Positions 4,621 to 29,133 of a stretch of 64,000 bases of DNA are shown piece by piece. Position numbers and translations under genes: made by a program. Source of the DNA: an uncultured Desulfobacteraceae bacterium (GTDB lineage Bacteria > Desulfobacterota > Desulfobacteria > Desulfobacterales > UBA5852); NCBI GenBank assembly GCA_942491115.1, contig CALNZV010000020.1, forward strand, positions 512,524 to 576,523. Reading direction: 5' to 3'. How positions within the stretch are numbered: position 1 is the stretch's first letter; every line of letters begins with the position of its first letter. The notes beneath the pieces are model-generated. The model had not been told where the DNA came from. It did no database searches and was given only the letters and a program-made list of their open reading frames with translations.

Positions 4621-5724
4621 CTATTTCTTTAGAGCGTATTTTTCAGCGATCACATTGTAGTATGCATTTTCGGAGACCGATCCCCAAACGCCCACCTGGG
4701 CCTTGAATGTCTTGAATGCTTCATGAACCTTTCGGGACATGGCGTCTTTGTCAGCCTCTTCTTCAAGGGTTTCATCGGCCAGTTTGCGCAGGTCTTCCAT
4801 GAGCGGGTCCGGGAACCGCACCAGATTGACGTTGTGCTCCGAGATCAGGGTCTGCAAGGCGGCGCCGTTGCCGGCCTCGAATTCGGAAAGGCTCCACATG
4901 TTGGTTTCCGCCGCTACGGCGTCCACGATCGCCTGAAGATCTTTTGGCAGGGATTCGTAGGCCTTCTTGTTGAAAATAACCTCAAGGCATGTCCCCGGCT
5001 CGTGCCATCCAGGGTAGTAGTAATATTTGGCTGCTTTGTAAAATCCCATGCGAAGATCGTGCATCGGTCCGACCCATTCCGTGGCGTCGATGACCCCGCG
5101 CTCGAGGGAGGTGAAGATCTCCCCGCCGGGAAGAAGAACCACTGTCCCTCCGGCCTTGGCGATCACTTTGCCGCCCAGACCCGGGATGCGCATCTTCAAC
5201 CCCTTGTAATCGTCTATGGACTTCATCTCCTTTCGGAACCAGCCGCCCATCTGAACCCCCGTGTTGCCCTGGGGCCTGGGGATGACGTTAAAGGGAGCGT
5301 AAACCTCCTCCCACAACTGCAGTCCGCCGCCGCTGTAAAACCATGCGTTGATCCCCTGGGCGTTGAAGCCGAAAGGGACCGCTGCAAACCACTGGGCCGC
5401 CGGCACTTTACCGGCCCAGTAATATGAAGCGCCGCTGCCACATTCCACCGTTCCGTCGGAAACGGCGTCGAACACCCCCAGTGGGGGCACCAGCTCGCCG
5501 CCGGCGAACACCTGAATCTTCAGCCGCCCTTCGGAGACTTCCTCCACTCGCTTGGCAAACCGTTCCGCGCCGGTCTGAAGCACCGGCAGGTTGGGCGGCC
5601 AGGTGGAGACCATTTTCCACATGTACTTCTTCTGCGCGATGACCGCCGGAGCCGCCATCGTCGATGCCGCTGCCGCCGCCACGGCAGCAACACTCGTTTT
5701 TTTCAGGAAATCTCTTCTTTTCAT
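4621..5724 (-). CDS. dctP: TRAP transporter substrate-binding protein (DctP family, COG4663-like)
   Basis: 367 aa. Tat-like signal MKRRDFLKKTSVAAVAAAAASTMAAPAVIAQ. WKMVSTWPPNLPVLQTGAERFAKRVEEVSEGRLKIQVFAGGELVP is typical of TRAP solute receptors. AGGAAAGGAG RBS. Confidence 0.9.
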   Translation of the reverse strand: MKRRDFLKKTSVAAVAAAAASTMAAPAVIAQKKYMWKMVSTWPPNLPVLQTGAERFAKRVEEVSEGRLKIQVFAGGELVPPLGVFDAVSDGTVECGSGASYYWAGKVPAAQWFAAVPFGFNAQGINAWFYSGGGLQLWEEVYAPFNVIPRPQGNTGVQMGGWFRKEMKSIDDYKGLKMRIPGLGGKVIAKAGGTVVLLPGGEIFTSLERGVIDATEWVGPMHDLRMGFYKAAKYYYYPGWHEPGTCLEVIFNKKAYESLPKDLQAIVDAVAAETNMWSLSEFEAGNGAALQTLISEHNVNLVRFPDPLMEDLRKLADETLEEEADKDAMSRKVHEAFKTFKAQVGVWGSVSENAYYNVIAEKYALKK

Positions 5725-15835: not shown

Positions 15836-16379
15836 GTTCCGACGGTTCCGGGTCGTCCCCATCGCCGGCGTCGCTCTGCCCGGTATCCGCCGAGGCCGGT
15901 GTTCGATCCTCGAGGTATTCACCGAAGGCCCGGACCAGATCGCCAAATTGGCGGGTCTGATTTTCGGTCAGCTCTTTCAGGGCTTCCATGGTCGTCGACT
16001 GAACATCGCCCTCACCGGTAACCACACCGCTCAGGTAACGAATCATCCGCGCCTGCTCCTCATTTTCTTTTCGGAGCGCATCCCGCTCCTCCTCAAGGCG
16101 GCGGTAGTCGTTGAGGGGAACGGCCCCCACCATCTGGAGCCAGCCCTCATAGGCTGCCTGGAAATCCGTCATGCCCGGTGGCAGGGGATCGGCCTCCGCG
16201 CTGCGCTGCCCCTCATTGCCCGGTGTCAACCGATAGGTTTGTCGAAACATTTCGGCCAGCCCGTCAGCGCTCGCCACACCGCCTCTGAACCACTTCGTCA
16301 TCTCATCGATCTGGGTCTGGCCCCGTGCCGCATTGATAAACAGATTTCCGATGAACTCCAAAAATCTCGGATCCATCAT
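15825..16379 (-). CDS. PHA synthase-associated coiled-coil protein (PhaE-like or class IV PhaR-like partner, tentative)
   Basis: 184 aa. Start overlaps the phaC stop (ATGA at 16376-16379). Central heptad-like segment (YRRLEEERDALRKENEEQARMIRYL) and an acidic Pro-rich tail. Confidence 0.5.
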   Translation of the reverse strand: MMDPRFLEFIGNLFINAARGQTQIDEMTKWFRGGVASADGLAEMFRQTYRLTPGNEGQRSAEADPLPPGMTDFQAAYEGWLQMVGAVPLNDYRRLEEERDALRKENEEQARMIRYLSGVVTGEGDVQSTTMEALKELTENQTRQFGDLVRAFGEYLEDRTPASADTGQSDAGDGDDPEPSEPTP

Positions 16380-17959
16380 TGGTCCCTCCCGGCTGTTTCG
16401 GCATCCAGCCGAAGCTGGAATTCAACAGGTCCGGCACAGCCGGTATTGGTGCAGACGTAGGCTCCGTCTCCGGCTTCCGGATCAAGGTTTGATGTGGCTA
16501 TGGCAACGTGTCCCCGGGGATAGGAGGACAGTTCGACGTCGATGAAGTCCATCGGCGCCAGCGCCGCCGCCGGATCCACGAGATTGTCCTTCTCCGCATA
16601 GCAGATCAGGTAGGGTATCTTTCGATCCCTGATGCGCTTGAAATTGAGCTGACGGCCAAACAATCGCACCGGCAAGGTGCCGTCATCGGAAACCGGTCGC
16701 CGGTAAGATTCAAAACTCAAGCGGGTGACCGCTTCCGGAAGGTCCACCTGGTCATAGAGCAGCCAGTGGTTGATGGCCAGGGAGGATTTGCTGAACCCTT
16801 TCTCCGGGGGGTCGAACCGGTCCATCATCTCGAGATCGCGGTAAAAGGCGGTTACCGGCCCTTCGAGTTCGATGCTTTTCAACTTGTAGACCCAGCTCAT
16901 GATCCCCCCGTCCACCACCCGGTTGCCGTTCGGCAGCACTTTGACGGCATAGCCGAGATCTCGAAACCCCTCGGGTAGCAGGCGAATGAATGCCGCCAAA
17001 TCCTTGCTTCGGGACCCGTCCATCGGGGACACGCAGGTCATCAGGGCATCGGCAAGTCCGTCGAGTTCCCCTGACAGAAGCGTCAGCATGGCCAGAAAGC
17101 CCCCCTGACAATAGCCGCAGAGGGTAGCGGGCCGACCGTGGGTTTTCAGGATGGCTTCACAAAAAAACCGCGTATCCGACGCATCTTCCTCTCCGGTCAT
17201 GGTCTGGACCGCCGGATGCTCGGAGATGGGTTTGATGATACGAATGAATGTCGGAAACCCCTGATTGGCAAAGGCATGAACGAAACTGCGGTTTTCAGCG
17301 GGTAAAAACGCCATGATGTTGGGGCCGAGGACCGACGGGGGAATGATCAGAATGGGTTTGGTGTCATTTCGGACTTCGACGCCCTGCCTGTTGGGGAGGA
17401 CCTGTAAGAGACGGAATCGGTCGGTTTCTGCGATGAGTCGGTAGCCGTCGTCGTCGAAGTGAAAGCCGAATTCCTCCTTGATATCATGGATGGCCTTGGG
17501 GAAACGTCGCGAAACCGCATCCATGAGCGCATACTGCCGCTGACTCAGCTGAAGCAGCTTCTCGAGGCCGCTTCCGTTGCCGACATCCAGACAGCCGGCC
17601 CATGCATCCATCCACTGGGGCCAGCGCCTCCCATGAAAGGTAGCAACGGCGTCCATGCTGCCGTTCAGGCAGCGGGCGGCCAGTTCGGCATTGACTGACA
17701 ACAGCGACAGATAATCTTGCAGAGAGTCCCACCGGGGACTCTCAATCCATTTTCGCTGTTCTCGCCGGACGAAGATGGCCGCAGCGTTCATCAGCGGCTC
17801 TAAAAAACCGGATGAATAGCCGGCCATCCCCTCCCAGTAGCGGGTAGCTGTCTGCCATTGCGAGGAGAAGAGGCGCAACCACAGTTCCCCTGTCGGGGTC
17901 AGAAGATCCAATGGGGTCGGGGCAGCAAAGGGATCGGTTCGAAGTGGGGTCCCCGCCAT
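16376..17959 (-). CDS. phaC: poly(R)-hydroxyalkanoate synthase PhaC
   Basis: 527 aa from the ATG at 17959 (GAGGAGAGGAG RBS). Alpha/beta fold with the PHA-synthase lipase-like box LCGYCQGG (G-x-C-x-G-G). Confidence 0.85.
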   Translation of the reverse strand: MAGTPLRTDPFAAPTPLDLLTPTGELWLRLFSSQWQTATRYWEGMAGYSSGFLEPLMNAAAIFVRREQRKWIESPRWDSLQDYLSLLSVNAELAARCLNGSMDAVATFHGRRWPQWMDAWAGCLDVGNGSGLEKLLQLSQRQYALMDAVSRRFPKAIHDIKEEFGFHFDDDGYRLIAETDRFRLLQVLPNRQGVEVRNDTKPILIIPPSVLGPNIMAFLPAENRSFVHAFANQGFPTFIRIIKPISEHPAVQTMTGEEDASDTRFFCEAILKTHGRPATLCGYCQGGFLAMLTLLSGELDGLADALMTCVSPMDGSRSKDLAAFIRLLPEGFRDLGYAVKVLPNGNRVVDGGIMSWVYKLKSIELEGPVTAFYRDLEMMDRFDPPEKGFSKSSLAINHWLLYDQVDLPEAVTRLSFESYRRPVSDDGTLPVRLFGRQLNFKRIRDRKIPYLICYAEKDNLVDPAAALAPMDFIDVELSSYPRGHVAIATSNLDPEAGDGAYVCTNTGCAGPVEFQLRLDAETAGRDQ

Positions 17960-17999
17960 GACGGCTCCTCTCCTCGGCAACAGCGTCGAGTGGCAGAGA

Positions 18000-18260
18000 T
18001 TATTCCCAGGCCTTGATTGCTGCGGCATATCGATCGGACGATTCCAGCATTGTCTTGTGGAGAAAGTCCGAGTTTTGCTTCATGTTGCCGGCCCATTGCT
18101 GGATGATCGATTTCCCGGTATCCGGCAGATAGGGAAGAGTCTCAATGCCGATCCGAATGGCCGTCTGGGCATGGTCCTGAAGCGCCGCCATGGTTTTAAC
18201 GGAGCTGCGAACCATTTCCCTGTTGTAAGCGCCCACGCGCGTCATCTGGTTTTTGATCAT
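18000..18260 (-). CDS. phasin-like protein (paralog 1)
   Basis: 86 aa (GAGGTGG RBS). Aligns by eye with the neighbouring 93-aa ORF (LPYLPDTGKSIIQQWAGNMKQ vs VPGMPEEGRKMVQEWADAYKK). Confidence 0.55.
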   Translation of the reverse strand: MIKNQMTRVGAYNREMVRSSVKTMAALQDHAQTAIRIGIETLPYLPDTGKSIIQQWAGNMKQNSDFLHKTMLESSDRYAAAIKAWE

Positions 18261-18302
18261 TGGATCCACCTCTGTTATTTGCAATGCACAATCAGTTAGG
18301 GG

Positions 18303-18584
18303 TTATTTTTTGGATTTGCCGGTATCGGCCTCGCCGAGGAATGAATCGAGCTTGTCAAACCCATCGTCCACCGCTTTTTTGTATGTCTCACGACCTTTTT
18401 TGTAGGCGTCGGCCCATTCTTGAACCATTTTCCTGCCTTCCTCTGGCATGCCGGGTACCTGTGACATCAGGGACTTGAACATGGCCTCGGTCTGATCCTG
18501 AACCATCACCAGGGCTGTGAAAGCGTTGCTGAACGTGGCTTTCTGAAATTCGACCATCTGCTTTGCAATCTTCTTTGATTCCAT
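18303..18584 (-). CDS. phasin-like protein (paralog 2)
   Basis: 93 aa from the ATG at 18584 (GGAGG RBS). Amphipathic helical, Lys/Glu-rich. First gene of the phasin-phasin-phaC-partner string. Confidence 0.6.
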   Translation of the reverse strand: MESKKIAKQMVEFQKATFSNAFTALVMVQDQTEAMFKSLMSQVPGMPEEGRKMVQEWADAYKKGRETYKKAVDDGFDKLDSFLGEADTGKSKK

Positions 18585-18815
18585 GGTTTGACCTCCTTGT
18601 CGTTGCTGCGGTTGTGGGTTGTGTGGGTCGGCGGACGCCAGTGCGTCCAGCTTGTTGCATTGCAACAAATATCTGGCATTCAGTCCTCATTGTCAAGTAA
18701 ATATTTACAAATCGCCCCTGGTAGGATACCCAAAACGTCGGCAATTCACCTTCATGCCTCTACAGGCAGTTCACCACCCACCCTGCCACCCCCGCCCAGG
18801 GAAGGAACCACAGCC

Positions 18816-19298
18816 GTGACCCATCCGGTGATGATTAAAAAATACGCCAATCGACGGCTGTACGATACCGATACCAGCCGATACATTACCCTGGGGGAGC
18901 TGGCCCAGCTGATTCGCGACGGCAAACGGGTTGAGATCGTCGACGCCAAATCGGGCGACGACGTCACCGCCTTCATCCTCACCCAGGTCATCATGGATCA
19001 AGCCAAGAACAACAACGCCCTGCTGCCGCCGCCCCTGCTGCATCTGGTCATCCGCTACGGCGACAATCTTCTGGTGGATTTCTTCGAAAATTACCTGCAA
19101 CAAGTCCTCAGCGCCTATCTGAACTATCGATCAACCGTCGACAAGCAGTTCAAGGAGTGGCTCGATATCGGAACGAATCTGGCGGATATTTCACGCCATT
19201 CCACAGGGGAACTGAATCCGTTGAAACCCTTTTTCGATATGTTTTTCGATGCCTCGACGGTTCCAACCCGAAATAAAAAAGTGGACGATGAGGAATAA
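18816..19298 (+). CDS. phaR: PHA synthesis repressor PhaR
   Basis: IKKYANRRLYDTDTSRYITLGELAQLIRDGKRVEIVDAKSGDDVTAFILTQVI is the canonical PhaR N-terminal DNA-binding domain. Start is the GTG at 18816 or the ATG at 18831. Divergent from the phasin genes. Confidence 0.85.
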   Translation: MTHPVMIKKYANRRLYDTDTSRYITLGELAQLIRDGKRVEIVDAKSGDDVTAFILTQVIMDQAKNNNALLPPPLLHLVIRYGDNLLVDFFENYLQQVLSAYLNYRSTVDKQFKEWLDIGTNLADISRHSTGELNPLKPFFDMFFDASTVPTRNKKVDDEE

Positions 19299-19402
19299 CT
19301 CCGGACTCCGTTTGACCATGGAATGCGGATTGCCAAGGGATGTTCCGAATTCAACACCCGGGTCCGGCGGTCACTCATCGACACTTCAGCCGATGCCTGC
19401 CG

Positions 19403-20179
19403 TCAATAGGTCGAAGAGATCCGGTCAAGGAAATCGACGATCGCAGACGTGACGGCAGCGGGCTTTTCCACGGGAATCATGTGGCCCGAGTCCTTCACCC
19501 GGACCCGCACCGACCGGGGAATTTGCCTGGAAAGGTAATCACTGTATTTGGGAGGGGTCAACCGGTCCTCGGTTGCCGATACCACCAGCACCGGGAGATC
19601 GATCTCCTTCACCCTCGCCATGGCGTCGAAACGGTTACAGGCGGTAAAATCCCCGGCGGCGACCCCAGGATCACAGGCGGCGATCGTTTCCAGGGCGTCG
19701 TGGCGCCTGGAGGCATCGGTCTGGCCTGAAAACCCCATGTCGTCGTAGAGGTCGATGAACCGCTCGAAATCGGATTCGATGGCGTCAAAAAGAATCGGCA
19801 GCACCTTCAACCGCGCACCGGAACTGATTAATATACCAGCGAGAAACGGTCCGGGATAGTCCAGGAGCAGCCGTTGGACAATGGCGCCCCCCAAACTGAA
19901 TCCGCATGGCACCGGATGTTGAATGTTCATCGCTTCCATGAAATGGAATACGGCTTCGGCGTAAGCTTTGACCGACGCCCTTCCGGGGCCCTTGCTCGCC
20001 CCATGACCAGGAAGGTCGATGGCAATGGTATTGATCAGAAAAGACAAGGCCTTAACCTGTTCCTTCCACAGGGTGCAGGCACCGCCCGAGCCATGAATGA
20101 ACAGCAGTGTCGGCAACTGGCTCGACAATGGCCACCTGCCGGCAATGAAATGGATTCCGTCTACCGTTTTCGTTTCCAT
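19403..20179 (-). CDS. alpha/beta-fold hydrolase
   Basis: 258 aa. LLFIHGSGG oxyanion region and nucleophile elbow GFSLGG. Confidence 0.8.
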   Translation of the reverse strand: METKTVDGIHFIAGRWPLSSQLPTLLFIHGSGGACTLWKEQVKALSFLINTIAIDLPGHGASKGPGRASVKAYAEAVFHFMEAMNIQHPVPCGFSLGGAIVQRLLLDYPGPFLAGILISSGARLKVLPILFDAIESDFERFIDLYDDMGFSGQTDASRRHDALETIAACDPGVAAGDFTACNRFDAMARVKEIDLPVLVVSATEDRLTPPKYSDYLSRQIPRSVRVRVKDSGHMIPVEKPAAVTSAIVDFLDRISSTY

Positions 20180-20453: not shown

Positions 20454-21110
20454 ATGGGAATTCGACAACTCAGACGCCGCATGCAGCAGCAGCGGGAAGC
20501 GGCCAGACGGCGGTTTCGCCGCCAAAAAAATGCCAACTTGCTGGCGGAACCTGGCCATCACGCATTCGCCATTGTTCTTGATCATCTGAAGCCGGCCTTC
20601 AACATCGGGAAAATATTCAGGAGTGCCGATGCCTTTGGCGCCCGCGAGGTTCACCTGGTCGGCATCGATTTTTTCGATCCCTCTCCGTCCATGGGGTCGT
20701 TCAAATGGGTGCCTGCCCGCTTTTTTGATGAGTTTTCAGATAGCCACGAGGATCTGAGCCGCCGGGAATACGCCCTTTACGCTCTGGACCCCGCCGGGCG
20801 CCTTCCATTGCCGGATATCCGGCTTCCGAAAAAAAGCGCTTTCATCTTCGGCCACGAGGAGTATGGCCATAGCTTCGACCGTTCCGCATTCCCCAGCGTG
20901 ACTCCCGTCATGATACCCCAACTCGGCAAAGTGGAGAGCCTCAACGTCAGTGTGGCCGCCTCGATCGTCATGTACGAATACTGGCGCCAGCACCGGGATC
21001 CGGAAACCGCCCCCATGCGCCCTCGGTACCGCCATCGGGACGTCCGAAACATCCCCCGCCTCGGGTCTGTCGATACCGATGGCCTCCCCCCTGGGGATGC
21101 TCCCGGCTAG
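20454..21110 (+). CDS. TrmH/SpoU-family RNA 2'-O-methyltransferase
   Basis: 218 aa. NIGKIFRSADAFG, FIFGHEEYG and VESLNVSVAASIVMYE motifs of SpoU methylases. Confidence 0.8.
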   Translation: MGIRQLRRRMQQQREAARRRFRRQKNANLLAEPGHHAFAIVLDHLKPAFNIGKIFRSADAFGAREVHLVGIDFFDPSPSMGSFKWVPARFFDEFSDSHEDLSRREYALYALDPAGRLPLPDIRLPKKSAFIFGHEEYGHSFDRSAFPSVTPVMIPQLGKVESLNVSVAASIVMYEYWRQHRDPETAPMRPRYRHRDVRNIPRLGSVDTDGLPPGDAPG

Positions 21111-21427
21111 CTGCCGCCCAAGACCGGAAGCGACTCCCCTGCCGGGGAAAGGCTCAATACCCCACTGTCGGCTCCGGAAAGGTCCACATCGAACTCATCG
21201 AAAATGCCGCCGAGGAGGATATCGACCCGCCGTGTGCGCTCCACCAGGATTCCCTGGCGGTCAAAAACAATGGGCCCATTGGGATCCAACACCAGTTTGA
21301 GGGTAAAAAAGGCCTGTTTTCCCTTTCGCACCGAAAACCGATCCCCGGGATTGAAACGGGTGCCCATCAGTTCATGGGCCGGGATCAGGATTCCCCTTCG
21401 CTGAGGGTCATGGACGGCTCTTGGCAT
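21107..21427 (-). CDS. hypothetical protein with AbrB/SpoVT-like N-terminal motif
   Basis: 106 aa. RGILIPAHELMGTRFNPGDRFSVRK resembles the swapped-hairpin motif (xIPxxxxxxxxxxxGD). Last gene of the pxp-like operon. Confidence 0.4.
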   Translation of the reverse strand: MPRAVHDPQRRGILIPAHELMGTRFNPGDRFSVRKGKQAFFTLKLVLDPNGPIVFDRQGILVERTRRVDILLGGIFDEFDVDLSGADSGVLSLSPAGESLPVLGGS

Positions 21428-21504
21428 TAGTTGTATCCTTTACAACCCATGGAATTCCGCGGTATCGGACCGGTGGGCGGAGATCTTCCTCCGATGGGGC
21501 CGGC

Positions 21505-22338
21505 TCAGCCGCCGTGGGTGTCGGCATAGTCGGCAAATCGCTTCATGATATCCAGGGTGCGGGGCCCCGGGACGCCATCACCAAGGCGGATGGCATTGAT
21601 GCGAACCACCGGAACGATTTCCTTGTTCGATGCCGTAATGAAGGCCTCATCCATCAGCATCAGCTCATTGGCGTGAAGATCGCGTATCTCGAGAGGGAAA
21701 TCGTCCTTCATCAGATTGATGACCACCTGGCGCGTTATTCCCGGCAAAATCCCCGTATCCGGCGTCACCAGGACCTCACCGATAAACCCGAAGAAATTGG
21801 AGGTGGTGCCTTCCAGCACTCGACCCATGCCATCAACGTACAGAGATTCGACGGCCCCCTGCTCCCGGGCATCCTTGAGAGCGAGAATTCCCGGAATATA
21901 GTTGGTGCTCTTCGCTCCCGGCACGAACCGGTCTATATGGGAAGTGATCACCTTGACCCCCTGCGCGTACCATTCCTTGGGCAGCCCGTGGAGGGGGGTG
22001 ATCATCACGATCAAGCGCGGGTCGTCCATGGGGGTGATGGAATCTTCGCTGCCGCCCCCCGTCACGAGGATGCGGATATTGCATTCCCGGTGGGAACTTT
22101 TGGAGAGAGCATCCTCAACGATATGGATGATGTCCTGCCGGGACCATTTCAGGGTCATACCGATCAGCCGGGCGGATCGTTCCAACCGTTTCACGTGGTC
22201 GGCCAGATGAAAGGGGCGCTTTCCATAGGTTCGGAGAAAGTCGAACACGCCGTATCCTCTCAGGACTGCCAGATCTCGAATGCTGATGACCGCTTCCGAC
22301 TCCGTCACGGCCTTTCCGTCGATGGTGATGATGTCCAT
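21505..22338 (-). CDS. class IV (fold type IV) PLP aminotransferase (BCAT/D-amino-acid aminotransferase/ADC lyase family)
   Basis: 277 aa. AAGGAG RBS. RGYGVFDFLRTY, GAKSTNY (PLP Lys region), EGTTSNFF and ILPGITR motifs. Confidence 0.85.
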   Translation of the reverse strand: MDIITIDGKAVTESEAVISIRDLAVLRGYGVFDFLRTYGKRPFHLADHVKRLERSARLIGMTLKWSRQDIIHIVEDALSKSSHRECNIRILVTGGGSEDSITPMDDPRLIVMITPLHGLPKEWYAQGVKVITSHIDRFVPGAKSTNYIPGILALKDAREQGAVESLYVDGMGRVLEGTTSNFFGFIGEVLVTPDTGILPGITRQVVINLMKDDFPLEIRDLHANELMLMDEAFITASNKEIVPVVRINAIRLGDGVPGPRTLDIMKRFADYADTHGG

Positions 22339-22368
22339 GGGTATGCTCCTTTGGGGTATCCGTTGCCA

Positions 22369-23235
22369 TCATGGTGCCGGGTTGAATCGGGCCGCCAGGG
22401 TTTCCAGTTCCCTCTTCCGGGTTTTCGCCACGGAGACCGCCTCATCCATGGAAACCTCCTTGAATCGCACCATTTGCTCCGGTCCGATTTGGGCAAGAAA
22501 ATCCACATCGGCGCTGATGACGTTGTAGATGCGGGGGTAGCCCCCGACGGTTTGGCGGTGCCGAAGGAGAATGATCGGACCCTTCGGGGTCAATTGAATC
22601 GTTCCGTCGCTGACAGGAGCGGAGATCATATTTTCAAGAGACGTCGATAGCGTCGCTGTATCGCTGGACAACCGCATGCCCATGGTGCTCATCTCGTGGG
22701 TGGTTTTCCAGGATACGGCGGTAAAACGGTCTCCACGGTCCAAGGTGCCGTGTTCGGGACCTCTGAGGACACGGACCCGTCCCTCGGCGTCGGGCCAGGA
22801 AAACACGTCATCAAACCGCCCACGGCTCCTCCCGGCCAGCGCGGCATTCTCCTTGAGGCCGTCGGTGGGCAGCAGTGAAACATATCCCCTGAAGCCCAGT
22901 CCCTTTTCCCCCATCTCCAGCACGCTGCCTGAAGGGGCGGCTACCGTTTCGCCGTGCCGCACTGAAATCGCCTCTCCGCCAGCGGGAAGGAGAAGTCGAC
23001 AATGGGGAAAGTGGGCGCCGGTCAGGACCACGGTGCAGTTGGCTGTCAACCGGATAACCGGGGGAAGAATCACCTCCAGGGTGACGATGCCGCGATGACC
23101 ACCCAGAAGAATCCTGCCCGTGTCGAATGCCAGGCGATCCATACAGCCGCCGGGACTGACCCCCACATCCTGCCTGCCGAACACCGGTGGTCCCGCTTCA
23201 TCGAATAGACCCGATTGAAGGACGTCGTATGTCAT
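22369..23235 (-). CDS. pxpC: 5-oxoprolinase subunit C-like (PxpC/KipA, allophanate hydrolase subunit 2 family)
   Basis: 288 aa. MTYDVLQSGLFDEAGPP...GVSPGGCMD start and TVGGYPRI motif typical of this family. Confidence 0.8.
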   Translation of the reverse strand: MTYDVLQSGLFDEAGPPVFGRQDVGVSPGGCMDRLAFDTGRILLGGHRGIVTLEVILPPVIRLTANCTVVLTGAHFPHCRLLLPAGGEAISVRHGETVAAPSGSVLEMGEKGLGFRGYVSLLPTDGLKENAALAGRSRGRFDDVFSWPDAEGRVRVLRGPEHGTLDRGDRFTAVSWKTTHEMSTMGMRLSSDTATLSTSLENMISAPVSDGTIQLTPKGPIILLRHRQTVGGYPRIYNVISADVDFLAQIGPEQMVRFKEVSMDEAVSVAKTRKRELETLAARFNPAP

Positions 23236-23287
23236 CGATAGCTTTCATGGCACGGTGAAAAATCAGCGCTGGCGGCTGTTGTCCGAA

Positions 23288-23968
23288 TCAATCGATCCTG
23301 TCGACGGCCTCGAAGCGCACCCGGTCCCCCGGTTTGAGAACCGTCAGCAACTCGGGCCGGGTTCGCCCGATCAGGTTCCAGCCACCAGGAGATTCCTGGG
23401 GGTAGATACCGGTCTGTGCCCCGCCGATGGCAACGGTGCCCGCAGGGATCCGGGTCCGGGGGCTTTCCAGCCGTGGGGTGATCAATCGATCGTCCAGGCC
23501 GATAAGATAGGGGAAGTGGGGCTGGAATCCAATCATGGCAACCGTGTAATCGCCCCCAGCGTGAAGGCCGATCATCCTTTCGACGGACAACCCGCTGTGA
23601 CGGGCCACCCGATCCAAGTCTTCGCCGTCATAGACCACGGGGAATCGATAGGTTTCAGCGTCCGCCGGTGCGTCGACGTCTCCGCAACGACCGGCCGCTG
23701 TTCCGACCCGTTTGCGGATACGAGGGATGTCGGCGACAGCCGGGTCGAAATACAGCGCCACCGCATTGTAGGCCGGCACCACATCGGTCACCGAAAGCCC
23801 CTCCAAATAGGGATCCGCCTTCAGCGCCCGATAGAGCCGATGAACCTTCCTGGATACGGCGAGGCCGATGCCGTCGCCGAGGGACCAGCACAGGCAGCCG
23901 TCCCCGATGAAAAACGAGGCGCCCCCAGAGAGGTCCGCGCCGTCATTGTCTTCATAGTCGGTAGTCAC
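23288..23968 (-). CDS. pxpB: 5-oxoprolinase subunit B-like (PxpB/KipI, allophanate hydrolase subunit 1 family)
   Basis: 226 aa. VVPAYNAVALYFDP, IGFQPHFPYL and GGAQTGIYPQESPGGWNLIG motifs. Confidence 0.8.
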   Translation of the reverse strand: MTTDYEDNDGADLSGGASFFIGDGCLCWSLGDGIGLAVSRKVHRLYRALKADPYLEGLSVTDVVPAYNAVALYFDPAVADIPRIRKRVGTAAGRCGDVDAPADAETYRFPVVYDGEDLDRVARHSGLSVERMIGLHAGGDYTVAMIGFQPHFPYLIGLDDRLITPRLESPRTRIPAGTVAIGGAQTGIYPQESPGGWNLIGRTRPELLTVLKPGDRVRFEAVDRID

Positions 23969-24737
23969 TGTCTGCTCGATCTCCGACGAACATGTGCCCC
24001 GGGGTGTGGGTGATCATCAAGGGGGGGCGCGCCACTATGGCCGCCATCTGAGGCGTGACGCCGCAGGCCCAAAACACCGGCACATCATCCGGGTAAAGAG
24101 TGACCGCATCGCCCCAATCGGGTTCCGAAAGATGGTCAATACCCATTTTTTGGGGATCGCCGATATGAACCGGGCTGCCATGGACCGCCGGGAAATCCCG
24201 AGTCACTTCGACGGCACGGACGATGTCCCGACCCTGGAACGGCCGCATGCTGACCACCATCGGAGACCTTCTGAACCGGCCGGCGGCATGGCAAAGCACA
24301 TTGCTGCGGTACATGGGCACGGTAACCCCCTCCTCGATATGACGAATCTTCAGGCCGTCCCGCATCAAGGCCTGCTCGAAGGTAAAACTGCACCCCAGCA
24401 GAAAAAATACGAAGTCCGGCGACCAGAGGCTCGATATATCGCCAACCTCCGCATCCAACTCCCCATGACGATAGACGCGATAGCTCGAAATATCCGTGCG
24501 GATATCCGCCTGATCGGCCACAAATCTCGTGACAGGGTCTCCCACGTCGCCAACCTCGATCACCGGACATGGCTTTGGATTTCGTTGGGAAAAAAGAAGA
24601 AAATCAAATGCCCAATCCTTCGGTAATATGACCAGGTTGGCCTGAACATACCCGTTTGCCTGCCCGCTGGTCTGACCGGTAAATGCTCCGGTGCGGGCGG
24701 CTTGTCTGAGCTCGCTTCCGGTTGTGTACACCTTCAT
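23952..24737 (-). CDS. DUF1445 putative hydro-lyase (YcsI / D-glutamate cyclase-like family)
   Basis: 261 aa. GQTSGQANGYVQANLVILPKDWAFDFLLFSQRNPKPCPVIEV is the characteristic N-terminal signature. Overlaps the pxpB start by 17 nt. Confidence 0.8.
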   Translation of the reverse strand: MKVYTTGSELRQAARTGAFTGQTSGQANGYVQANLVILPKDWAFDFLLFSQRNPKPCPVIEVGDVGDPVTRFVADQADIRTDISSYRVYRHGELDAEVGDISSLWSPDFVFFLLGCSFTFEQALMRDGLKIRHIEEGVTVPMYRSNVLCHAAGRFRRSPMVVSMRPFQGRDIVRAVEVTRDFPAVHGSPVHIGDPQKMGIDHLSEPDWGDAVTLYPDDVPVFWACGVTPQMAAIVARPPLMITHTPGHMFVGDRADSDYRL

Positions 24738-25057: not shown

Positions 25058-25390
25058 ATGACAAAACTGAGCACTGTCTCATTTTCGGGATGCAGCGGCG
25101 ACCGCCACTCATTTACGGCCTACAGCCTGAATTCCCACTTCAGCAAAACGGGCGGAGTCTACATCGTCACCCGGCGCTATCAGAATGAAACCGGTCGCTT
25201 TACCCAAAGCATGGTTTTTGTCGGTGTGGCCGACGATCTGTCGAGGGAGATGATCGATCACCCCCTGTCCCCCTGTTTCAAAAAATACGACGCCAATTGT
25301 ATCTGCATATACAACGAAACCGATGCAGGCCGCCGGGATGACGTACGCTCCGACCTCCTTTGCAAATATGCCCCTCCCTGCAACGCCTGA
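25058..25390 (+). CDS. small conserved-looking hypothetical protein (possible GIY-YIG-like fold)
   Basis: 110 aa. GGVYIVTRR...MVFVGVADDLSREMIDH...CFKKYDANCICIY...APPCNA. Has its own promoter. Family assignment is tentative. Confidence 0.5.
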   Translation: MTKLSTVSFSGCSGDRHSFTAYSLNSHFSKTGGVYIVTRRYQNETGRFTQSMVFVGVADDLSREMIDHPLSPCFKKYDANCICIYNETDAGRRDDVRSDLLCKYAPPCNA

Positions 25391-25525: not shown

Positions 25526-27862
25526 CTATGGCATTTTCAGAATGTCGGCGATCTTCTGGGACAGCTGCCCCATGGAGAAGGGTTTCTGGATGAATCCGTT
25601 ACACCCCCGGCGCAGGATACGGGACGCCTGGCCGTCAAGGGTATATCCACTGGCCAGCAGCGCCTTGACTTTCGGGTTGATATCGCGCAGGCGGTCAAAG
25701 ACCTCTCCCCCGCCGATATCCGGCATGATCATGTCCAAAATGACGAGATCGATGGACTCCCGATGCCGCTTGTAGATCCGGACGGCATCGCGTCCGCAGT
25801 CGGCTTCAAGCACCGTGTATCCGATATGCTTGAGCAGGCGAGCGGTCACCTTCAAAACCACTGGTTCGTCGTCGACAACCATGACGCAGCCGGTCCCTTT
25901 GATGACGGCCTCCGCACTCCTGCCCGCATTGGTGACTTTCTCCTGGGAAACCGGCAGAAAAATATCAAAAGTGGTGCCACGATCGAGTTCGGATTCGACG
26001 CCGATATAACCGTCGTGTCCCTTCACGATGCCATACACGGATGCGAGCCCTAGACCCGTACCCTGTCCCAGTTCTTTGGTGGTAAAAAACGGTTCGAAGA
26101 TCCGTGAGCGAATTTTGGGGTCCATCCCGAGGCCCGTATCGGAGATGCTGATCAGGGCGTATTTGCCGAGTTTGACAAGATCGTCCTCGGTTTGAATCTG
26201 CTGATGGGAGACATTGGAGGTTCTGATGAAGATCTTTCCGCCTCCAGGCATGGCATCCGCTGCATTGTTCAGGATATTGAGCAGGACCTGTTCGATCTGC
26301 CCCCGGTCGACGGCAACGGCATGAAGGTCTCTCAGCAGACTGTAATGAACCGATATTTCATGCCGGGTCCGGCTGAAGGTATCCACCGTCTTCTCGACCA
26401 GTTGATTCAGATCGGTCGCCTGAATTTCGATCTTTCCTTTTCTGGCATACCCCAGTAACTGGGCAGTCAAGGTAGCGCCGCTACCCACCTGCTCTTGAAT
26501 TTTCCTTAACTCTTCATAATTGGGGTGTTGTTTATCGGTATCGAGAAGCATCAGAGAGACACAGCCCTGGATGCCCATGAGAAGATTGTTGAAATTGTGG
26601 GCAATGGCTCCGGCCAGGGTGCCGACCGCCTCCATTTTTTGGGCGTGGCGGAACTGCACCTCCAGCTGCTTTTGTTCGTTGATGTCCCTGAGAAAGTTGA
26701 GGGTCGCCGGTTTTCCCTCCCACTTGATGGGCACCGTGTTGAGCTGAACCCAGTAGGGTTCACCATCCGAAAGAATGAGCCGGAAGGGATAGGAGTCGGT
26801 GCGATGGACCGTCTTACCTTCCATCTGTCGATCCAGGATGATGTCCTTGTCGACCGGGTCGATATGGTCGAAAAAAGACTTCTCCTTCAAATTGATCCCA
26901 AGGTACTGGGCCAGTTCCCGGGTCTGGGGGTTAGGGAATTTGATCTTACCGTCCTGGAGAATAAAAATGGCATCCTTTGCATGTTCGACCAGAAGACGGT
27001 ATTTCGCTTCCGATTCTTTGATGGCCACTTCCGCCCGCTTGATCGGATCGATATCCTTGGCAACGGACAGGACATGGGATTCACCGCTCAGATTGATGAT
27101 GTTGGCCGACAGAAGCCCGGTTCGGACATCTCCGTTTCTCAGTCTGAATAGAATTTCAAAGTCCTTCACTGACCCGCGGCGCCGTATACGCGTCATGATT
27201 CTAAGGGCATCTCTGGGGTTGGCCCATAGATTCAAGTCTTCAGGGGTTTTCCCAATGACATCTTCGCTGGTATACCCCGTCAGTTGGCTGAAACCATGAT
27301 TGATCATCGTATAGGCGCCGTCCCGCAGTCGGTTGATAAAAATAGCGTCGGGACTGGTTTCAAGCGCCGTTTCTAAAACCGTGCTGGCCATCTCCAGTGC
27401 GGTGGTGGCCCGCAGATAGTCGCTGATGTTTCTGGATATGGCGAGAAATCCCTGGGTCACCCGAAGGTCATCGGTGACGGCGGACAGGGAGGTTTCCATC
27501 TCGAGTTTAGAGCCGTCATGGGCCAGCAGTTCGATGTCGACAAACCGTGCCTGCCCTCCTGAAGAGAGGGCCGTTCCCGCCTCCTCCACTTTGCGGCGGT
27601 ATTTGGGAACCAGAAAGTTTCGAAAATCTTTTCCCACCAGGGCACCGACCGGATATCCAAGCCATTTCTCACAGGATGGCGCAACGAAGGTGATTTGCCA
27701 TGAGGTATCGAACATCCAGACCAGATCGGTGACGCTTTCAATCGCCTGGCGATAGACGGACAGCGTCTTCTCCATGGTTTCCACCTGGCTGTTGAGGCGT
27801 CGATTCTCGAAGTCGATGGTATTCGGGGGCGGGGTGTTGCTTACCCCAAACTGGTTTCCCAT
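25526..27862 (-). CDS. hybrid sensor histidine kinase (multiple PAS, HisKA, HATPase, receiver)
   Basis: 778 aa. Several PAS-like repeats. H-box [14 protein letters not shown]-box [14 protein letters not shown]-terminal receiver [10 protein letters not shown]...[13 protein letters not shown]. Confidence 0.9.
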
Positions 27863-27920: not shown

Positions 27921-28940
27921 CTATATCAGCCGGTGGGCCTGACTCTCGGTTTTTCCTGCCGGTGTGATCCGGATGTAATCCAGTTTCCGCTGCAGTTCAC
28001 GGATGGTCATGGCGCCACCGTAGGTCAGACCCGACCGGAGACCCCCCGTTATGTCAGCAATGATCTCCGACTCGTCCTCCCGGTAGGCAACGGTCGTCGC
28101 CACCCCCTCGGCCGTCTTCCATTCGGCCATGCCGCCGTGGAAGTCATCATGTGCTTCGCTGCTGGCCATGCCTCGGTAAACCTTGACCCGAACCTCTGAG
28201 CCGTCTTTCTCTTTTTGGGTGATGACCGGTCCCGGCGTAGGTCTGGTGCCAGCCAGCATGCTGCCGATCATGACAAAATCCGCACCGAAAGCGAGGGCTT
28301 TGACGATATCCCCCGGGGTACGAATGCCGCCGTCGGCCACGATCGATCGATCCGCGCGTGCGCAGTTTCTGAGGGCCGTCAGGTTGGGCACCCCAAAACC
28401 GGTCTTAAGCCGGGTGGTGCACACCGATCCGCCGCCGATGCCCACCTTGACGATGTCGGCGCTGCAGGATGCCAGGTAGTCTGCTCCCGCGTAGGTGGCG
28501 ACATTGCCGGCCATGATGCAGGCATTTTTACCAAGCAGCTGTCTGATGTGCTTCAGGGTTTTGCCCACATATCGGGCATGGGCATGGGCCACGTCCACAC
28601 AAAACCGGTCGGCACCGGCCCCCTTGAGGGCCTCGGCGCGTTCCAGATCTTTGGGCGTGCAGCCGATGGAAACGAATACCGGGTGGCGGCACGCCTTGAA
28701 TACCCGAATGTTGTCTTCCACCGACATGTATCGGTGAAGGACTCCGATCCCCCCTTTGTCGCCGATAAAATTCGCCATGTCGGCTTCGGTGATGGTATCC
28801 ATATTGGACGTCATCAAAGGAAGCTCCAAGTGGATCTTTCCCGTTCTGTCGGTAACGGATAGATCGACAATTCGCCTGGATTCCCAGTGATTGTAAGACG
28901 GAACCAGCAGGACGTCGTCATAGGTGATCGCATCGCTCAT
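27921..28940 (-). CDS. GMP reductase-like protein (IMPDH/GMPR family, no CBS pair)
   Basis: 339 aa from the ATG at 28940 (GGAGA RBS). DIVKVGIGGGSVCTTR catalytic Cys loop, DGGIRTPGDIVKALAFGADFVMIG and GGLRSGLTYGGA resemble GuaC. Confidence 0.75.
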   Translation of the reverse strand: MSDAITYDDVLLVPSYNHWESRRIVDLSVTDRTGKIHLELPLMTSNMDTITEADMANFIGDKGGIGVLHRYMSVEDNIRVFKACRHPVFVSIGCTPKDLERAEALKGAGADRFCVDVAHAHARYVGKTLKHIRQLLGKNACIMAGNVATYAGADYLASCSADIVKVGIGGGSVCTTRLKTGFGVPNLTALRNCARADRSIVADGGIRTPGDIVKALAFGADFVMIGSMLAGTRPTPGPVITQKEKDGSEVRVKVYRGMASSEAHDDFHGGMAEWKTAEGVATTVAYREDESEIIADITGGLRSGLTYGGAMTIRELQRKLDYIRITPAGKTESQAHRLI

Positions 28941-29133
28941 AAGAAAGTCTCCATGCGCCGGACCCTGGAGGGTCAAATCACCCTCGGGGCGACCGATCGG
29001 GTGGTGGAATCTGACGGGCTTGAAAAGCCCCGGGTATATTACGGGTTTAGGGCCCAAGGATCAACCCCTGCCAGTATTTGCCGGGAATCTTGACAATCTC
29101 AGGCTGTCTTTTTAAGCTGCCGTCGTCGATGGT

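Follow-up and report, generated by a model that had tools for sequence, protein, structure and literature searches.

A conserved operon in a Desulfobacterales clade

The window, by which we mean the whole 64-kb stretch of DNA analyzed here, comes from a Desulfobacterales bacterium and contains five genes that form a genuine operon. This operon appears to be a clade-specific, reduced form whose most likely function, on balance, is the interconversion of 5-oxo-D-proline, D-glutamate, and 2-oxoglutarate, with enzyme activities, a direction of flux, and a partner for its PxpB- and PxpC-like proteins that we infer. What the sequences themselves show is which genes are present, how they are conserved and selected, the signature residues of the transaminase, the co-occurrence of the genes in clusters, and one gene fusion. 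All five genes lie on the minus strand. The first (positions 23952–24737; 261 aa; PF07286) encodes a DUF1445/UPF0317 "putative hydro-lyase" of the D-glutamate cyclase family, and is followed by genes for a PxpB-like protein (CT_C_D; KipI/AHS1 family; 23288–23968; 226 aa; GTG start; PF02682), a divergent PxpC-like protein (CT_A_B; KipA/AHS2 family; 22369–23235; 288 aa; PF02626), a fold-type IV aminotransferase that is predicted to be a group II (non-canonical) D-amino-acid transaminase (21505–22338; 277 aa; PF01063), and, as the last gene, a small conserved protein with no family match (21107–21427; 106 aa). According to the ORF coordinates, one 17-nt overlap is followed by gaps of 52, 30, and 77 nt, in exact agreement with the gene count, strand, and spacing described in an earlier sequence-only reading. 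That reading had also reported the window to be devoid of PxpA, which was borne out by a six-frame HMM search that found no PxpA (LamB_YcsF) in any frame of the 64 kb (best E-value 5.7). The five-gene arrangement and its flanking synteny were found again in five further contigs, and the dN/dS values across all five genes (0.06–0.22) indicate that these are real genes and that their arrangement is not attributable to chance.

A search of 1.84 billion representatives with the 106-aa protein yielded no more than 21 relatives at E ≤ 1e-3; the protein has a dN/dS of 0.10–0.18 relative to three orthologues and an AlphaFold2 model with a pLDDT of 87.7. It matched nothing in Pfam or NCBIfam, nor anything in the PDB when searched with Foldseek. 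An AbrB/SpoVT swapped-hairpin identity was tried by aligning the protein with the AbrB N-domain in hhalign, which gave no match. The name "AbrB-like", which the gene had initially been given, is therefore unsupported by profile, fold, or domain alignment.

DUF1445, PxpB-like, and PxpC-like proteins

By sequence, the DUF1445 protein belongs to the D-glutamate cyclase family (PF07286/UPF0317), scoring above the curated thresholds of both Pfam (D-Glu_cyclase/DUF1445; 2e-61, 206 bits versus 25) and NCBIfam (NF003969; 389 bits versus 324). It retains every column that is invariant in its relatives, of the 78 columns that other DUF1445 proteins conserve, the window clade deviates at only 4, and dN/dS relative to the sister genome L002 was 0.06. 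Its closest PDB entries, 2pif and 3db9, are UPF0317 proteins without functional annotation. DUF4392 (GLUCM-like_C), the companion of DUF1445 in the mammalian enzyme DGLUCY, which is the sole characterized member of the family, was not found in the 64-kb window (six-frame HMM search; best E-value >5). Which domain of DGLUCY is catalytic, DUF1445 or DUF4392, is not established, and we count the lack of DUF4392 in the window against the proposed function.

The PxpB-like protein matched PF02682 (CT_C_D, PxpB type; 8e-56), with 143.8 bits against the TIGR00370 cutoff of 145.55, 25 of 27 conserved columns retained, and a dN/dS of 0.15–0.22. The 17-nt overlap of its gene with the DUF1445 gene is common to three clade members (the window, L165, and a JGI contig). 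The PxpC-like protein matched PF02626 (CT_A_B, PxpC type; 2e-38) and did not reach equivalog scores (NF045499, 98 bits versus 500; TIGR00724, 108.6 versus 230.2); it retained 33 of 36 conserved columns, yet both Asn residues were missing from the GNxLLGN motif (dN/dS 0.17–0.22).

PxpB and PxpC have been proposed to form the ATP-dependent phosphorylating part of 5-oxoprolinase, with PxpA thought to decyclize the lactam, and the literature value of the equilibrium constant [Glu]/[5-oxoproline] is approximately 0.035. The three subunits of a PxpABC 5-oxoprolinase are not all encoded within the 64-kb window. Purifying selection acts on PxpB and PxpC in the clade that lacks PxpA (dN/dS 0.15–0.22); they must either be partnered by a PxpA encoded elsewhere or have a new mode of working. 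The clade represents a natural experiment on whether PxpB and PxpC can work without PxpA.

Related loci and the place of PxpA

A fuller form of the operon is conserved, widespread, and uncharacterized. Its gene order is DUF1445, DUF4392, PxpB, PxpA, PxpC, D-transaminase, and alanine racemase. The core from DUF1445 to the transaminase was present in six loci (L010, L011, L050, L051, L068, and L167), with the racemase after the transaminase in four of them (L011, L050, L051, and L167), and the fuller operon was found in Desulfobacterota, Spirochaetes, and marine metagenomes. The same set of genes occurred in other orders, with a canonical-type D-transaminase, in L122, L127, L139, L144, and L160, the last of which carried the single PxpC–DUF4392 fusion detected. 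DUF4392 was encoded by a neighboring gene in the six core loci and in L006 and L007.

The DUF1445, PxpB, PxpC, and transaminase genes of the window are orthologous to those of the fuller operon and have the same relative order, whereas DUF4392, PxpA, and alanine racemase are missing from the window clade, in which the 106-aa gene is an addition. The comparison thus shows the window operon as what is probably a clade-specific reduced form, in which DUF4392, PxpA, and the racemase were lost and the small protein was gained. Neither PxpA nor DUF4392 is encoded in six syntenic members, and in the sister genome L002, PxpB and PxpC have also been lost, so that the DUF1445–transaminase pair alone remains. 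Clusters without PxpA were found only in the window's own clade; outside its six members, PxpA was present in every untruncated locus with PxpB and PxpC, including 22 of 22 in the DUF1445 sample.

This regular association favors an arrangement in which PxpA is supplied in trans, PxpABC is an ordinary ATP-dependent 5-oxo-L-prolinase, and DUF1445 and the D-transaminase constitute a separate, merely co-regulated D-glutamate branch, a possibility of real weight that we nevertheless place short of probable. The purifying selection on PxpB and PxpC and the retention of most of their conserved columns are consistent with it, and detached pxpA genes do occur, as in L011, where an additional PxpA gene stands alone 7 kb from the cluster. 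However, the 21 kb to one side of the window operon and the 39 kb to the other were free of PxpA, as was the DNA within approximately 10 kb in L001 and L165, and the separation of pxpA from pxpBC was otherwise unseen in the approximately 35 clusters examined. The loss of the two conserved Asn residues from the clade PxpC, together with its position far below the PxpC model cutoff, also argues against this explanation.

The sequence-only reading had instead suggested that DUF1445 functionally replaces PxpA. Because the two proteins are found together in every fuller cluster, and in all 22 of the untruncated DUF1445 loci with PxpB and PxpC, they are not alternatives in general, and the suggestion is not supported. 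Restricted to the window clade, it would mean that DUF1445 took over the ring opening by PxpA and forms, with PxpB and PxpC, an ATP-dependent 5-oxo-D-prolinase that feeds D-glutamate to the transaminase. The stability of the PxpA-less arrangement in six syntenic contigs, with PxpC identity down to 62% and purifying selection, and the conservation of the DUF1445/PxpB overlap are in keeping with this, as is the PxpC–DUF4392 fusion, which together with the DGLUCY architecture shows that cyclase and Pxp parts can physically associate. Another decyclizing partner is also mechanistically conceivable, because phosphorylation of the lactam is attributed to PxpB and PxpC and its decyclization to PxpA. 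Nevertheless, besides the co-occurrence of DUF1445 with PxpA, 11 of 24 well-flanked loci had DUF1445 but no Pxp gene, and L002 dropped PxpB and PxpC but kept DUF1445 and the transaminase, indicating that DUF1445 does not require PxpB and PxpC. We therefore consider the replacement rather doubtful even within this clade. The most far-reaching proposal, which we likewise advance with considerable reserve, is that the clade DUF1445 is the decyclizing partner of PxpB and PxpC in a PxpA-independent 5-oxo-D-prolinase, that the group II D-transaminase drains D-glutamate to 2-oxoglutarate, and that the fuller operon encodes a new bacterial D-glutamate/D-pyroglutamate pathway.

Predicted specificity of the transaminase

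The fourth gene product matched PF01063 (Aminotran_4; 3e-50) and fell below each NCBIfam cutoff for BCAT, DAAT, and ADCL. Its best match in the PDB was the Haliscomenobacter D-amino-acid transaminase (7p7x/7p8o; 1e-41), and this best solved relative prefers D-glutamate and 2-oxoglutarate. Because overall similarity was the same to archaeal BCATs (33%) as to the D-transaminase Halhy (34%), the assignment of D-specificity depends on the residues of the motifs and on the gene context. Among 31 family members, R27, F32, F34, R36, R89, K143, and E176 were invariant, position 87 was a nearly invariant Asn, and position 239 was always Lys or Arg. The fold-type IV core, comprising the catalytic Lys, the PLP N1-binding Glu, and the phosphate-binding Arg, corresponds to K143, E176, and R51, all of which are invariant. 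With the group II motif taken from Table 1 of PMC12429042, the R-[RK] dyad was identified as R27xxxxF32xF34xR36 plus N87xR89, with no Y-R-H carboxylate trap. The basic residue of beta-turn 2, which would accommodate the gamma-carboxylate of D-glutamate or 2-oxoglutarate, is K239, which aligns with Halhy K241; this position is reported to be equivalent to AmicoTA K237 and DestiTA R262, and the AmicoTA Lys binds the gamma-carboxylate. In terms of gene context, 25 of 62 relatives have an alanine racemase gene as their immediate downstream neighbor. We predict from these features that the transaminase is D-specific and of the group II type.

The signature residues, which the sequence-only reading had singled out as a check, are thus those of a group II D-transaminase (R-x4-F/x-R) and not of an IlvE-type BCAT: the YxxxxFxGxR and YxR motifs, the GTAA loop, and the curated scores of IlvE were all lacking. 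It is true that the highest-scoring NCBIfam model was a BCAT subfamily (175 bits) and that relatives are named "branched-chain amino acid aminotransferase" in their sources, as would be expected if an ordinary IlvE BCAT unrelated to the pxp and DUF1445 genes lay beside them by chance. However, no BCAT model reached its cutoff, the BCAT residues Y31, G38, and Y95 are replaced by R, F, and N and the GTAA loop by ASNK, and the adjacency to pxp and DUF1445 genes recurs in several phyla, also with a second D-transaminase subfamily, which makes such a coincidence extremely improbable. The coupling of the transaminase with DUF1445 and pxp is frequent yet not obligatory, which we count against the proposed function: 46 of 54 well-flanked transaminase loci had no pxp or DUF1445 neighbor, and in 8 of 24 DUF1445 loci all of the partners were missing. 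A large Desulfobacterota family that is now named "branched-chain aminotransferase" should probably be relabeled as D-amino-acid transaminases.

Proposed pathway

In the reading that we prefer, the DUF1445 protein would close or open the lactam ring, and the transaminase would move the amino group of D-glutamate to pyruvate, yielding 2-oxoglutarate and D-alanine, so that transamination could pull the thermodynamically unfavorable ring opening. PxpB and PxpC may provide ATP-dependent activation of the lactam, partnered either by a PxpA encoded beyond the window or by DUF1445 itself. The D-glutamate/5-oxo-D-proline theme, proposed together with a D-transaminase before the related loci were compared, gained strong support from these loci, through the co-clustering of DUF4392, the adjacent alanine racemase, the second D-transaminase subfamily, and the PxpC–DUF4392 fusion; the accompanying idea of DUF1445 as a PxpA substitute did not.

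The flux may also run in the biosynthetic or homeostatic direction, with the transaminase making D-glutamate from D-alanine and 2-oxoglutarate for murein or another D-glutamate product and DUF1445 removing the surplus as 5-oxo-D-proline, as in mammals. D-Glutamate synthesis is the classic role of D-transaminases, some relatives of the window enzyme are encoded in operons of the type Alr, PGA_cap, racemase-like, and Ddl-like, and cyclization is both the thermodynamically favored direction and that of mammalian DGLUCY. This scheme is unlikely, however, in that it leaves the conserved ATP-dependent PxpB and PxpC (or PxpABC) without a role, and a cyclase beside an oxoprolinase would create a futile cycle if both used the same enantiomer.

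A PAS hybrid histidine kinase gene (25526–27862, minus strand) lies just upstream of the operon and is a conserved upstream neighbor in all clade members. In B. subtilis, the PAS kinase KinA is reportedly controlled by KipI and KipA, which are homologues of PxpB and PxpC. The mycobacterial homologues lack 5-oxoprolinase activity and bind a different complex, which would also fit PxpB and PxpC being KipI/KipA-type regulators of this kinase instead of enzyme subunits. Nevertheless, L002 retains the kinase though PxpB and PxpC were lost, and in the fuller clusters, which have PxpA and no kinase, they lie after DUF4392 and before the transaminase, so we regard a regulatory role as very unlikely.

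Comparison with known systems

As in the PxpABC systems of E. coli (YbgJKL) and B. subtilis, the PxpB- and PxpC-type genes of the window lie next to each other in the same order. In B. subtilis, the operon order, which we take to be ycsF-ycsG-ycsI-kipI-kipA, places ycsI directly upstream of pxpB, as the DUF1445 gene is in the window. In contrast to PxpABC, the window has no PxpA in 64 kb, its PxpC lies far under and its PxpB just under the NCBIfam cutoffs, and the cluster is tied to a D-amino-acid transaminase and not to an Mn/5-oxoproline transporter.

In mammals, D-glutamate cyclase (DGLUCY; C14orf159/9030617O03Rik) is a DUF1445–DUF4392 fusion that converts D-glutamate to 5-oxo-D-proline, and its DUF1445 domain is of the same family as the first gene of the window. 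The window has DUF1445 only, whereas the fuller bacterial clusters have DUF1445 and DUF4392 as neighboring genes, and DGLUCY is not known to have a transaminase or an ATP-dependent partner. The bacterial DUF1445 (UPF0317) proteins, although widespread and represented by two structural-genomics structures, have no assigned function.

The known group II D-amino-acid transaminases are Halhy of Haliscomenobacter hydrossis (7P7X), AmicoTA of Aminobacterium colombiense (8AHR/8AYK), and DestiTA of Desulfomonile tiedjei. The literature found on these enzymes does not discuss a pxp/DUF1445 gene context. The window enzyme shares with them the R-[RK] dyad, a beta-X strand that begins with RxxxxF, and the basic beta-turn 2 residue, as well as the catalytic Lys, Glu, and Arg; however, it is only 34% identical to Halhy, has Thr in place of Halhy R179, and belongs to an uncharacterized, Desulfobacterota-centered family. 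The repeated linkage of DUF1445, DUF4392, 5-oxoprolinase subunits, two independent D-transaminase subfamilies, and alanine racemase thus provides an assayable hypothesis of a bacterial D-glutamate/D-pyroglutamate pathway.

Gene content and surroundings of the operon

The five minus-strand genes of the operon encode, in order, a DUF1445 protein (23952–24737; Pfam D-Glu_cyclase/DUF1445, 2e-61), a PxpB-type protein (23288–23968; CT_C_D, 8e-56), a PxpC-type protein (22369–23235; CT_A_B, 2e-38), a class IV aminotransferase (21505–22338; Aminotran_4, 3e-50), and a 106-aa protein (21107–21427). The ORFs are spaced by a 17-nt overlap followed by gaps of 52, 30, and 77 nt, in exact agreement with the sequence-only reading. 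The 17-nt DUF1445/PxpB overlap was found again in the related contig L165 and a JGI contig, a conservation compatible with translational coupling. The DUF1445 protein scored above the NCBIfam equivalog cutoff for "putative hydro-lyase" (389 vs 324 bits); PxpB was slightly below its cutoff (143.8 vs 145.55 bits), PxpC well below (98 vs 500 bits), and the aminotransferase below all NCBIfam cutoffs for BCAT, DAAT, and ADCL. An exact look-up of the DUF1445 protein gave no recorded match. HMMs of PxpA and DUF4392, made from related loci, found neither protein in any of the six frames of the 64-kb window (best E = 5.7), and the claimed lack of PxpA from the window therefore stands. Promoter and terminator scans of the operon returned sites no more numerous than in shuffled sequence and therefore say nothing about transcription units, and an Rfam search of the operon and its upstream region gave no riboswitch and no other known RNA element.

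Upstream, a PAS/PAS/HisKA/HATPase/receiver hybrid histidine kinase (25526–27862, minus) and an IMPDH/GMP-reductase-like protein without the CBS insert (27921–29057, minus) are neighbors kept in every member of the window's clade. The 788-nt gap between the kinase and the operon contains an oppositely oriented ORF of 110 aa (25058–25390, plus), which has no Pfam match, is 55% identical to positions 5029–5361 of the clade contig L001, and is absent in L165 and the sister genome L002. Downstream lies a polyhydroxyalkanoate-related gene group (16376–20179), syntenic in L001, L002, and L165, within which are encoded a 550-aa PHA-synthase-like protein with a weak class III PhaC match, a PhaR-like repressor (18588–19298, plus), and an alpha/beta hydrolase (19403–20179, minus).

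The 106-aa gene is real, with dN/dS values of 0.10–0.18, but rare: a search of 1.84 billion representatives yielded 21 relatives at E ≤ 1e-3. Its AlphaFold2 model is confident (pLDDT 87.7) and has the order beta-beta-alpha-beta-beta-beta-beta-alpha-beta-beta. The "AbrB-like" label previously attached to this gene found no support: Foldseek returned no PDB match, Pfam no domain, and hhalign nothing against the AbrB N-domain. An internal repeat was also rejected, because BLASTP of one half against the other was empty. Weak repeated matches, with 2–4 stretches each, occurred in four giant proteins of 1,900–5,200 aa (P0127, P0133, P0135, and P0139), one of which carries fn3 and Calx-beta domains; these hint that large surface proteins may carry the same fold as a repeated module.

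Related loci encode a fuller operon

When one genome per species was scanned with the transaminase as the anchor, 80 loci were obtained, mostly from Desulfobacterota MAGs, with some from Spirochaetes and Anaerolineae. They were annotated with purpose-built HMMs, and the precomputed Pfam calls of the contigs later agreed. The order DUF1445–DUF4392–PxpB–PxpA–PxpC–aminotransferase was found in L010, L011, L050, L051, L068, and L167, with an alanine racemase after the aminotransferase in L011, L050, L051, and L167. The second gene, between DUF1445 and PxpB, is PF14336 GLUCM-like_C (DUF4392). Other loci contained PxpB–PxpA–PxpC–aminotransferase (L003 and L022), DUF1445–DUF4392–PxpA–aminotransferase (L006), DUF1445–DUF4392–aminotransferase (L007), or DUF1445–aminotransferase–small protein (L002). 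The cultured species Desulfatiferula olefinivorans (L166; GCA_054657895.1, 8636–12239) has no class IV transaminase in its cluster, where PxpB–PxpA–PxpC are followed by a 65-aa ORF and then an alanine racemase; this ORF is situated where relatives have the transaminase and might be its remnant.

Anchoring on DUF1445 added 80 further loci from metagenome contigs, 24 of them flanked by 4 kb or more on each side. PxpA, PxpB, and PxpC were all present in 13 of these 24, with the addition of DUF4392 plus a class IV aminotransferase in four and of DUF4392 by itself in one; three loci had DUF4392 only, and eight had none of the partners. Two more gene orders were DUF1445–PxpA–PxpB–PxpC–DUF4392–aminotransferase (L122, L139, L144, and L160) and aminotransferase–DUF4392–PxpB–PxpC–DUF1445–PxpA (L127). 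The aminotransferases of these five loci belong to another subfamily, with only 24% identity to the window protein. They carry the canonical FxxxxYxV signature, or in L127 a variant of it, and their top NCBIfam matches are D-amino-acid transaminase models; the best PDB matches of the L139 protein are Burkholderia and Bacillus D-transaminases. In L160 (6346–8106, plus), one 587-aa frame encodes a PxpC–DUF4392 fusion in which each domain is full length (CT_A_B, residues 26–291; GLUCM-like_C, residues 327–581). This was the only real fusion among the candidate long frames, and it joins 5-oxoprolinase to the partner domain of D-glutamate cyclase. The long DUF1445/DUF4392 "fusions" in L137, L140, L125, L131, and L102 were stop-to-stop frames that merely extend ahead of normal genes. 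At least three gene orders, D-transaminases recruited from two subfamilies, the PxpC–DUF4392 fusion, and the joining of DUF1445 to DUF4392 in animals point consistently, on comparative grounds, to joint action of the clustered genes on D-Glu and 5-oxoproline.

The aminotransferase has a group II D-transaminase signature

Relatives of the window aminotransferase constitute a large family of 277–281 aa, mainly from Desulfobacterota and commonly auto-named "branched-chain aminotransferase." The closest solved relative is the Haliscomenobacter hydrossis D-amino-acid transaminase (Halhy; 7p7x/7p8o, 1e-41), with archaeal BCATs close behind, followed by the Aminobacterium colombiense D-transaminase (AmicoTA). 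Overall identity, 34% with Halhy and 33% with the A. fulgidus BCAT, cannot separate the two; on the sequences compared, the specificity-determining positions can. The BCAT motif is YxxxxFxGxR plus YxR, and that of group II D-transaminases is RxxxxFx[TSYA]x[SALR] plus x-x-[RK] (Table 1, PMC12429042). In the window protein, the corresponding stretches are R27xxxxF32xF34xR36 and N87xR89. Across 31 family members, R27, F32, F34, R36, and R89 do not vary, nor do the catalytic K143, E176, and R51, and N87 is nearly fixed. ASNK occurs where the BCAT carboxylate loop has GTAA, and K239 aligns to Halhy K241, the position reported to be equivalent to AmicoTA K237, the lysine that, in the crystal complex, binds the D-Glu gamma-carboxylate. 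Both Halhy and AmicoTA prefer D-Glu/2-oxoglutarate and have no activity on L-amino acids.

Of the genome loci found with the transaminase as anchor, 62 extend for 5 kb or more past the gene, and in 25 of these an alanine racemase lies directly 3′ of the transaminase on the same strand (including L009, L013, L025, L032, L034, L036, L038, L043, L045, L048, L049, L052, L054–L057, L059, L064, L069, L074, L077, and L081). Sixteen of these 25 go on with PGA_cap (CapA-like), Asp/Glu-racemase-like, and Ddl-like (ATP-grasp ligase) proteins, and the whole set, with the alanine racemase, looks like a Desulfobacterota operon devoted to some peptide or polymer that contains D-amino acids. Because the motif positions and the gene context agree, the window aminotransferase is quite probably a group II D-amino-acid transaminase. 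An ordinary BCAT is ruled out by the motif residues, the sub-threshold model scores, and the gene context.

The PxpA-less clade retains PxpB and PxpC under selection

The arrangement DUF1445–PxpB–PxpC–aminotransferase–106-aa protein is common to six contigs: the window, L001, L004 (the Desulfobacterales MAG JASFIA01, with a 92% identical transaminase), L165, the JGI contig, and the JGI contig's short twin L164. They share upstream (M24 peptidase, DEAD_2 helicase, IMPDH-like protein, and PAS hybrid kinase) and downstream flanks (SpoU methylase, alpha/beta hydrolase, and PhaR), and neither PxpA nor DUF4392 occurs within the approximately 10 kb available on either side. Within the same flanks, L002 keeps DUF1445, the transaminase, and the small gene, and PxpB/C are gone too, which makes the clade, to judge from gene content, a stepwise reduction of the fuller operon.

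The dN/dS values against L004/L001 were 0.22/0.15 for PxpB, 0.22/0.17 for PxpC, 0.11/0.18 for the transaminase, and 0.10/0.15 for the 106-aa gene; DUF1445 had a value of 0.06 against L002. Of the columns conserved in PxpA-linked homologues, 25 of 27 were retained in PxpB and 33 of 36 in PxpC. Intact frames, dN/dS of 0.15–0.22, and these retained columns rule out PxpB/C as relics decaying after PxpA loss. A role for them in KipI/KipA-like regulation of the neighboring PAS kinase, a gene that shares the flank throughout the clade, is given lower weight. In the clade's PxpC, the GNxLLGN motif at residues ~41–47 reads GRILLGG(H), with both Asn gone, and near residue 253 Glu takes the place of a conserved Gly. 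The Asn loss is not diagnostic of PxpA-independence, because L011 also lacks the pair yet encodes PxpA.

Proposed pathway and the place of PxpA

The enzyme activities assigned here to the operon are all predicted from sequence. Published work proposes ATP-dependent phosphorylation of 5-oxoproline as the task of PxpB/C and decyclisation as that of PxpA, and the uncoupled equilibrium [Glu]/[5-oxoproline] is ~0.035, a value presumably equal for the D enantiomers. Given this unfavorable equilibrium, ring opening by the DUF1445 hydro-lyase would need either D-Glu removal or ATP coupling. The adjacent D-transaminase could remove D-Glu (D-Glu + pyruvate → 2-oxoglutarate + D-Ala), which would account for the persistence of the DUF1445–transaminase pair alone in L002, and in the fuller operon D-Ala would then be recycled by alanine racemase. 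The mammalian D-glutamate cyclase DGLUCY converts D-Glu to 5-oxo-D-proline; a flux in that direction, in which D-Glu is synthesized and the surplus disposed of as 5-oxo-D-proline, carries lower weight than ring opening. For the fuller operon only, D-to-L inversion via 5-oxoproline, in which racemase-like DUF4392 would carry out the inversion, is pure speculation.

The conserved, selected PxpB/C would most plausibly provide the ATP coupling. They may do so with a PxpA encoded elsewhere, a possibility that we rate below even odds. L011 contains a second, solitary PxpA-like gene (17440–18201, plus; 282 bits) approximately 7 kb downstream of its complete DUF1445–DUF4392–PxpBAC–transaminase cluster, so detached pxpA copies do occur in this bacterial order. 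Direct ATP coupling between PxpB/C and DUF1445 appears unlikely. The sequence-only reading had DUF1445 replacing PxpA, but PxpA is present in 22 of the 22 untruncated DUF1445-anchored loci with PxpB/C. Because the two co-occur wherever PxpB/C are present outside the window clade, the general pattern argues against substitution, and a clade-specific takeover would be a minority possibility.

Comparison with known systems

Comparative data from the related loci thus divide the sequence-only reading: its D-glutamate/5-oxo-D-proline theme is considerably strengthened and widened to a conserved multi-gene operon, and its replacement of PxpA by DUF1445 is disfavored. A full-text literature search found no paper on the function of DUF1445 among those mentioning it, and mention of DUF4392 only in the DGLUCY discovery paper; the PDB entries for DUF1445 are only unannotated UPF0317 structures. 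We found no published description of this conserved bacterial operon of six genes, or seven when the alanine racemase is counted. The window operon is, on its predicted gene content, a new, reduced variant assembled from known families. The DUF4392 of the fuller operon corresponds to the second domain of mammalian D-glutamate cyclase, itself a DUF1445 + DUF4392 protein.
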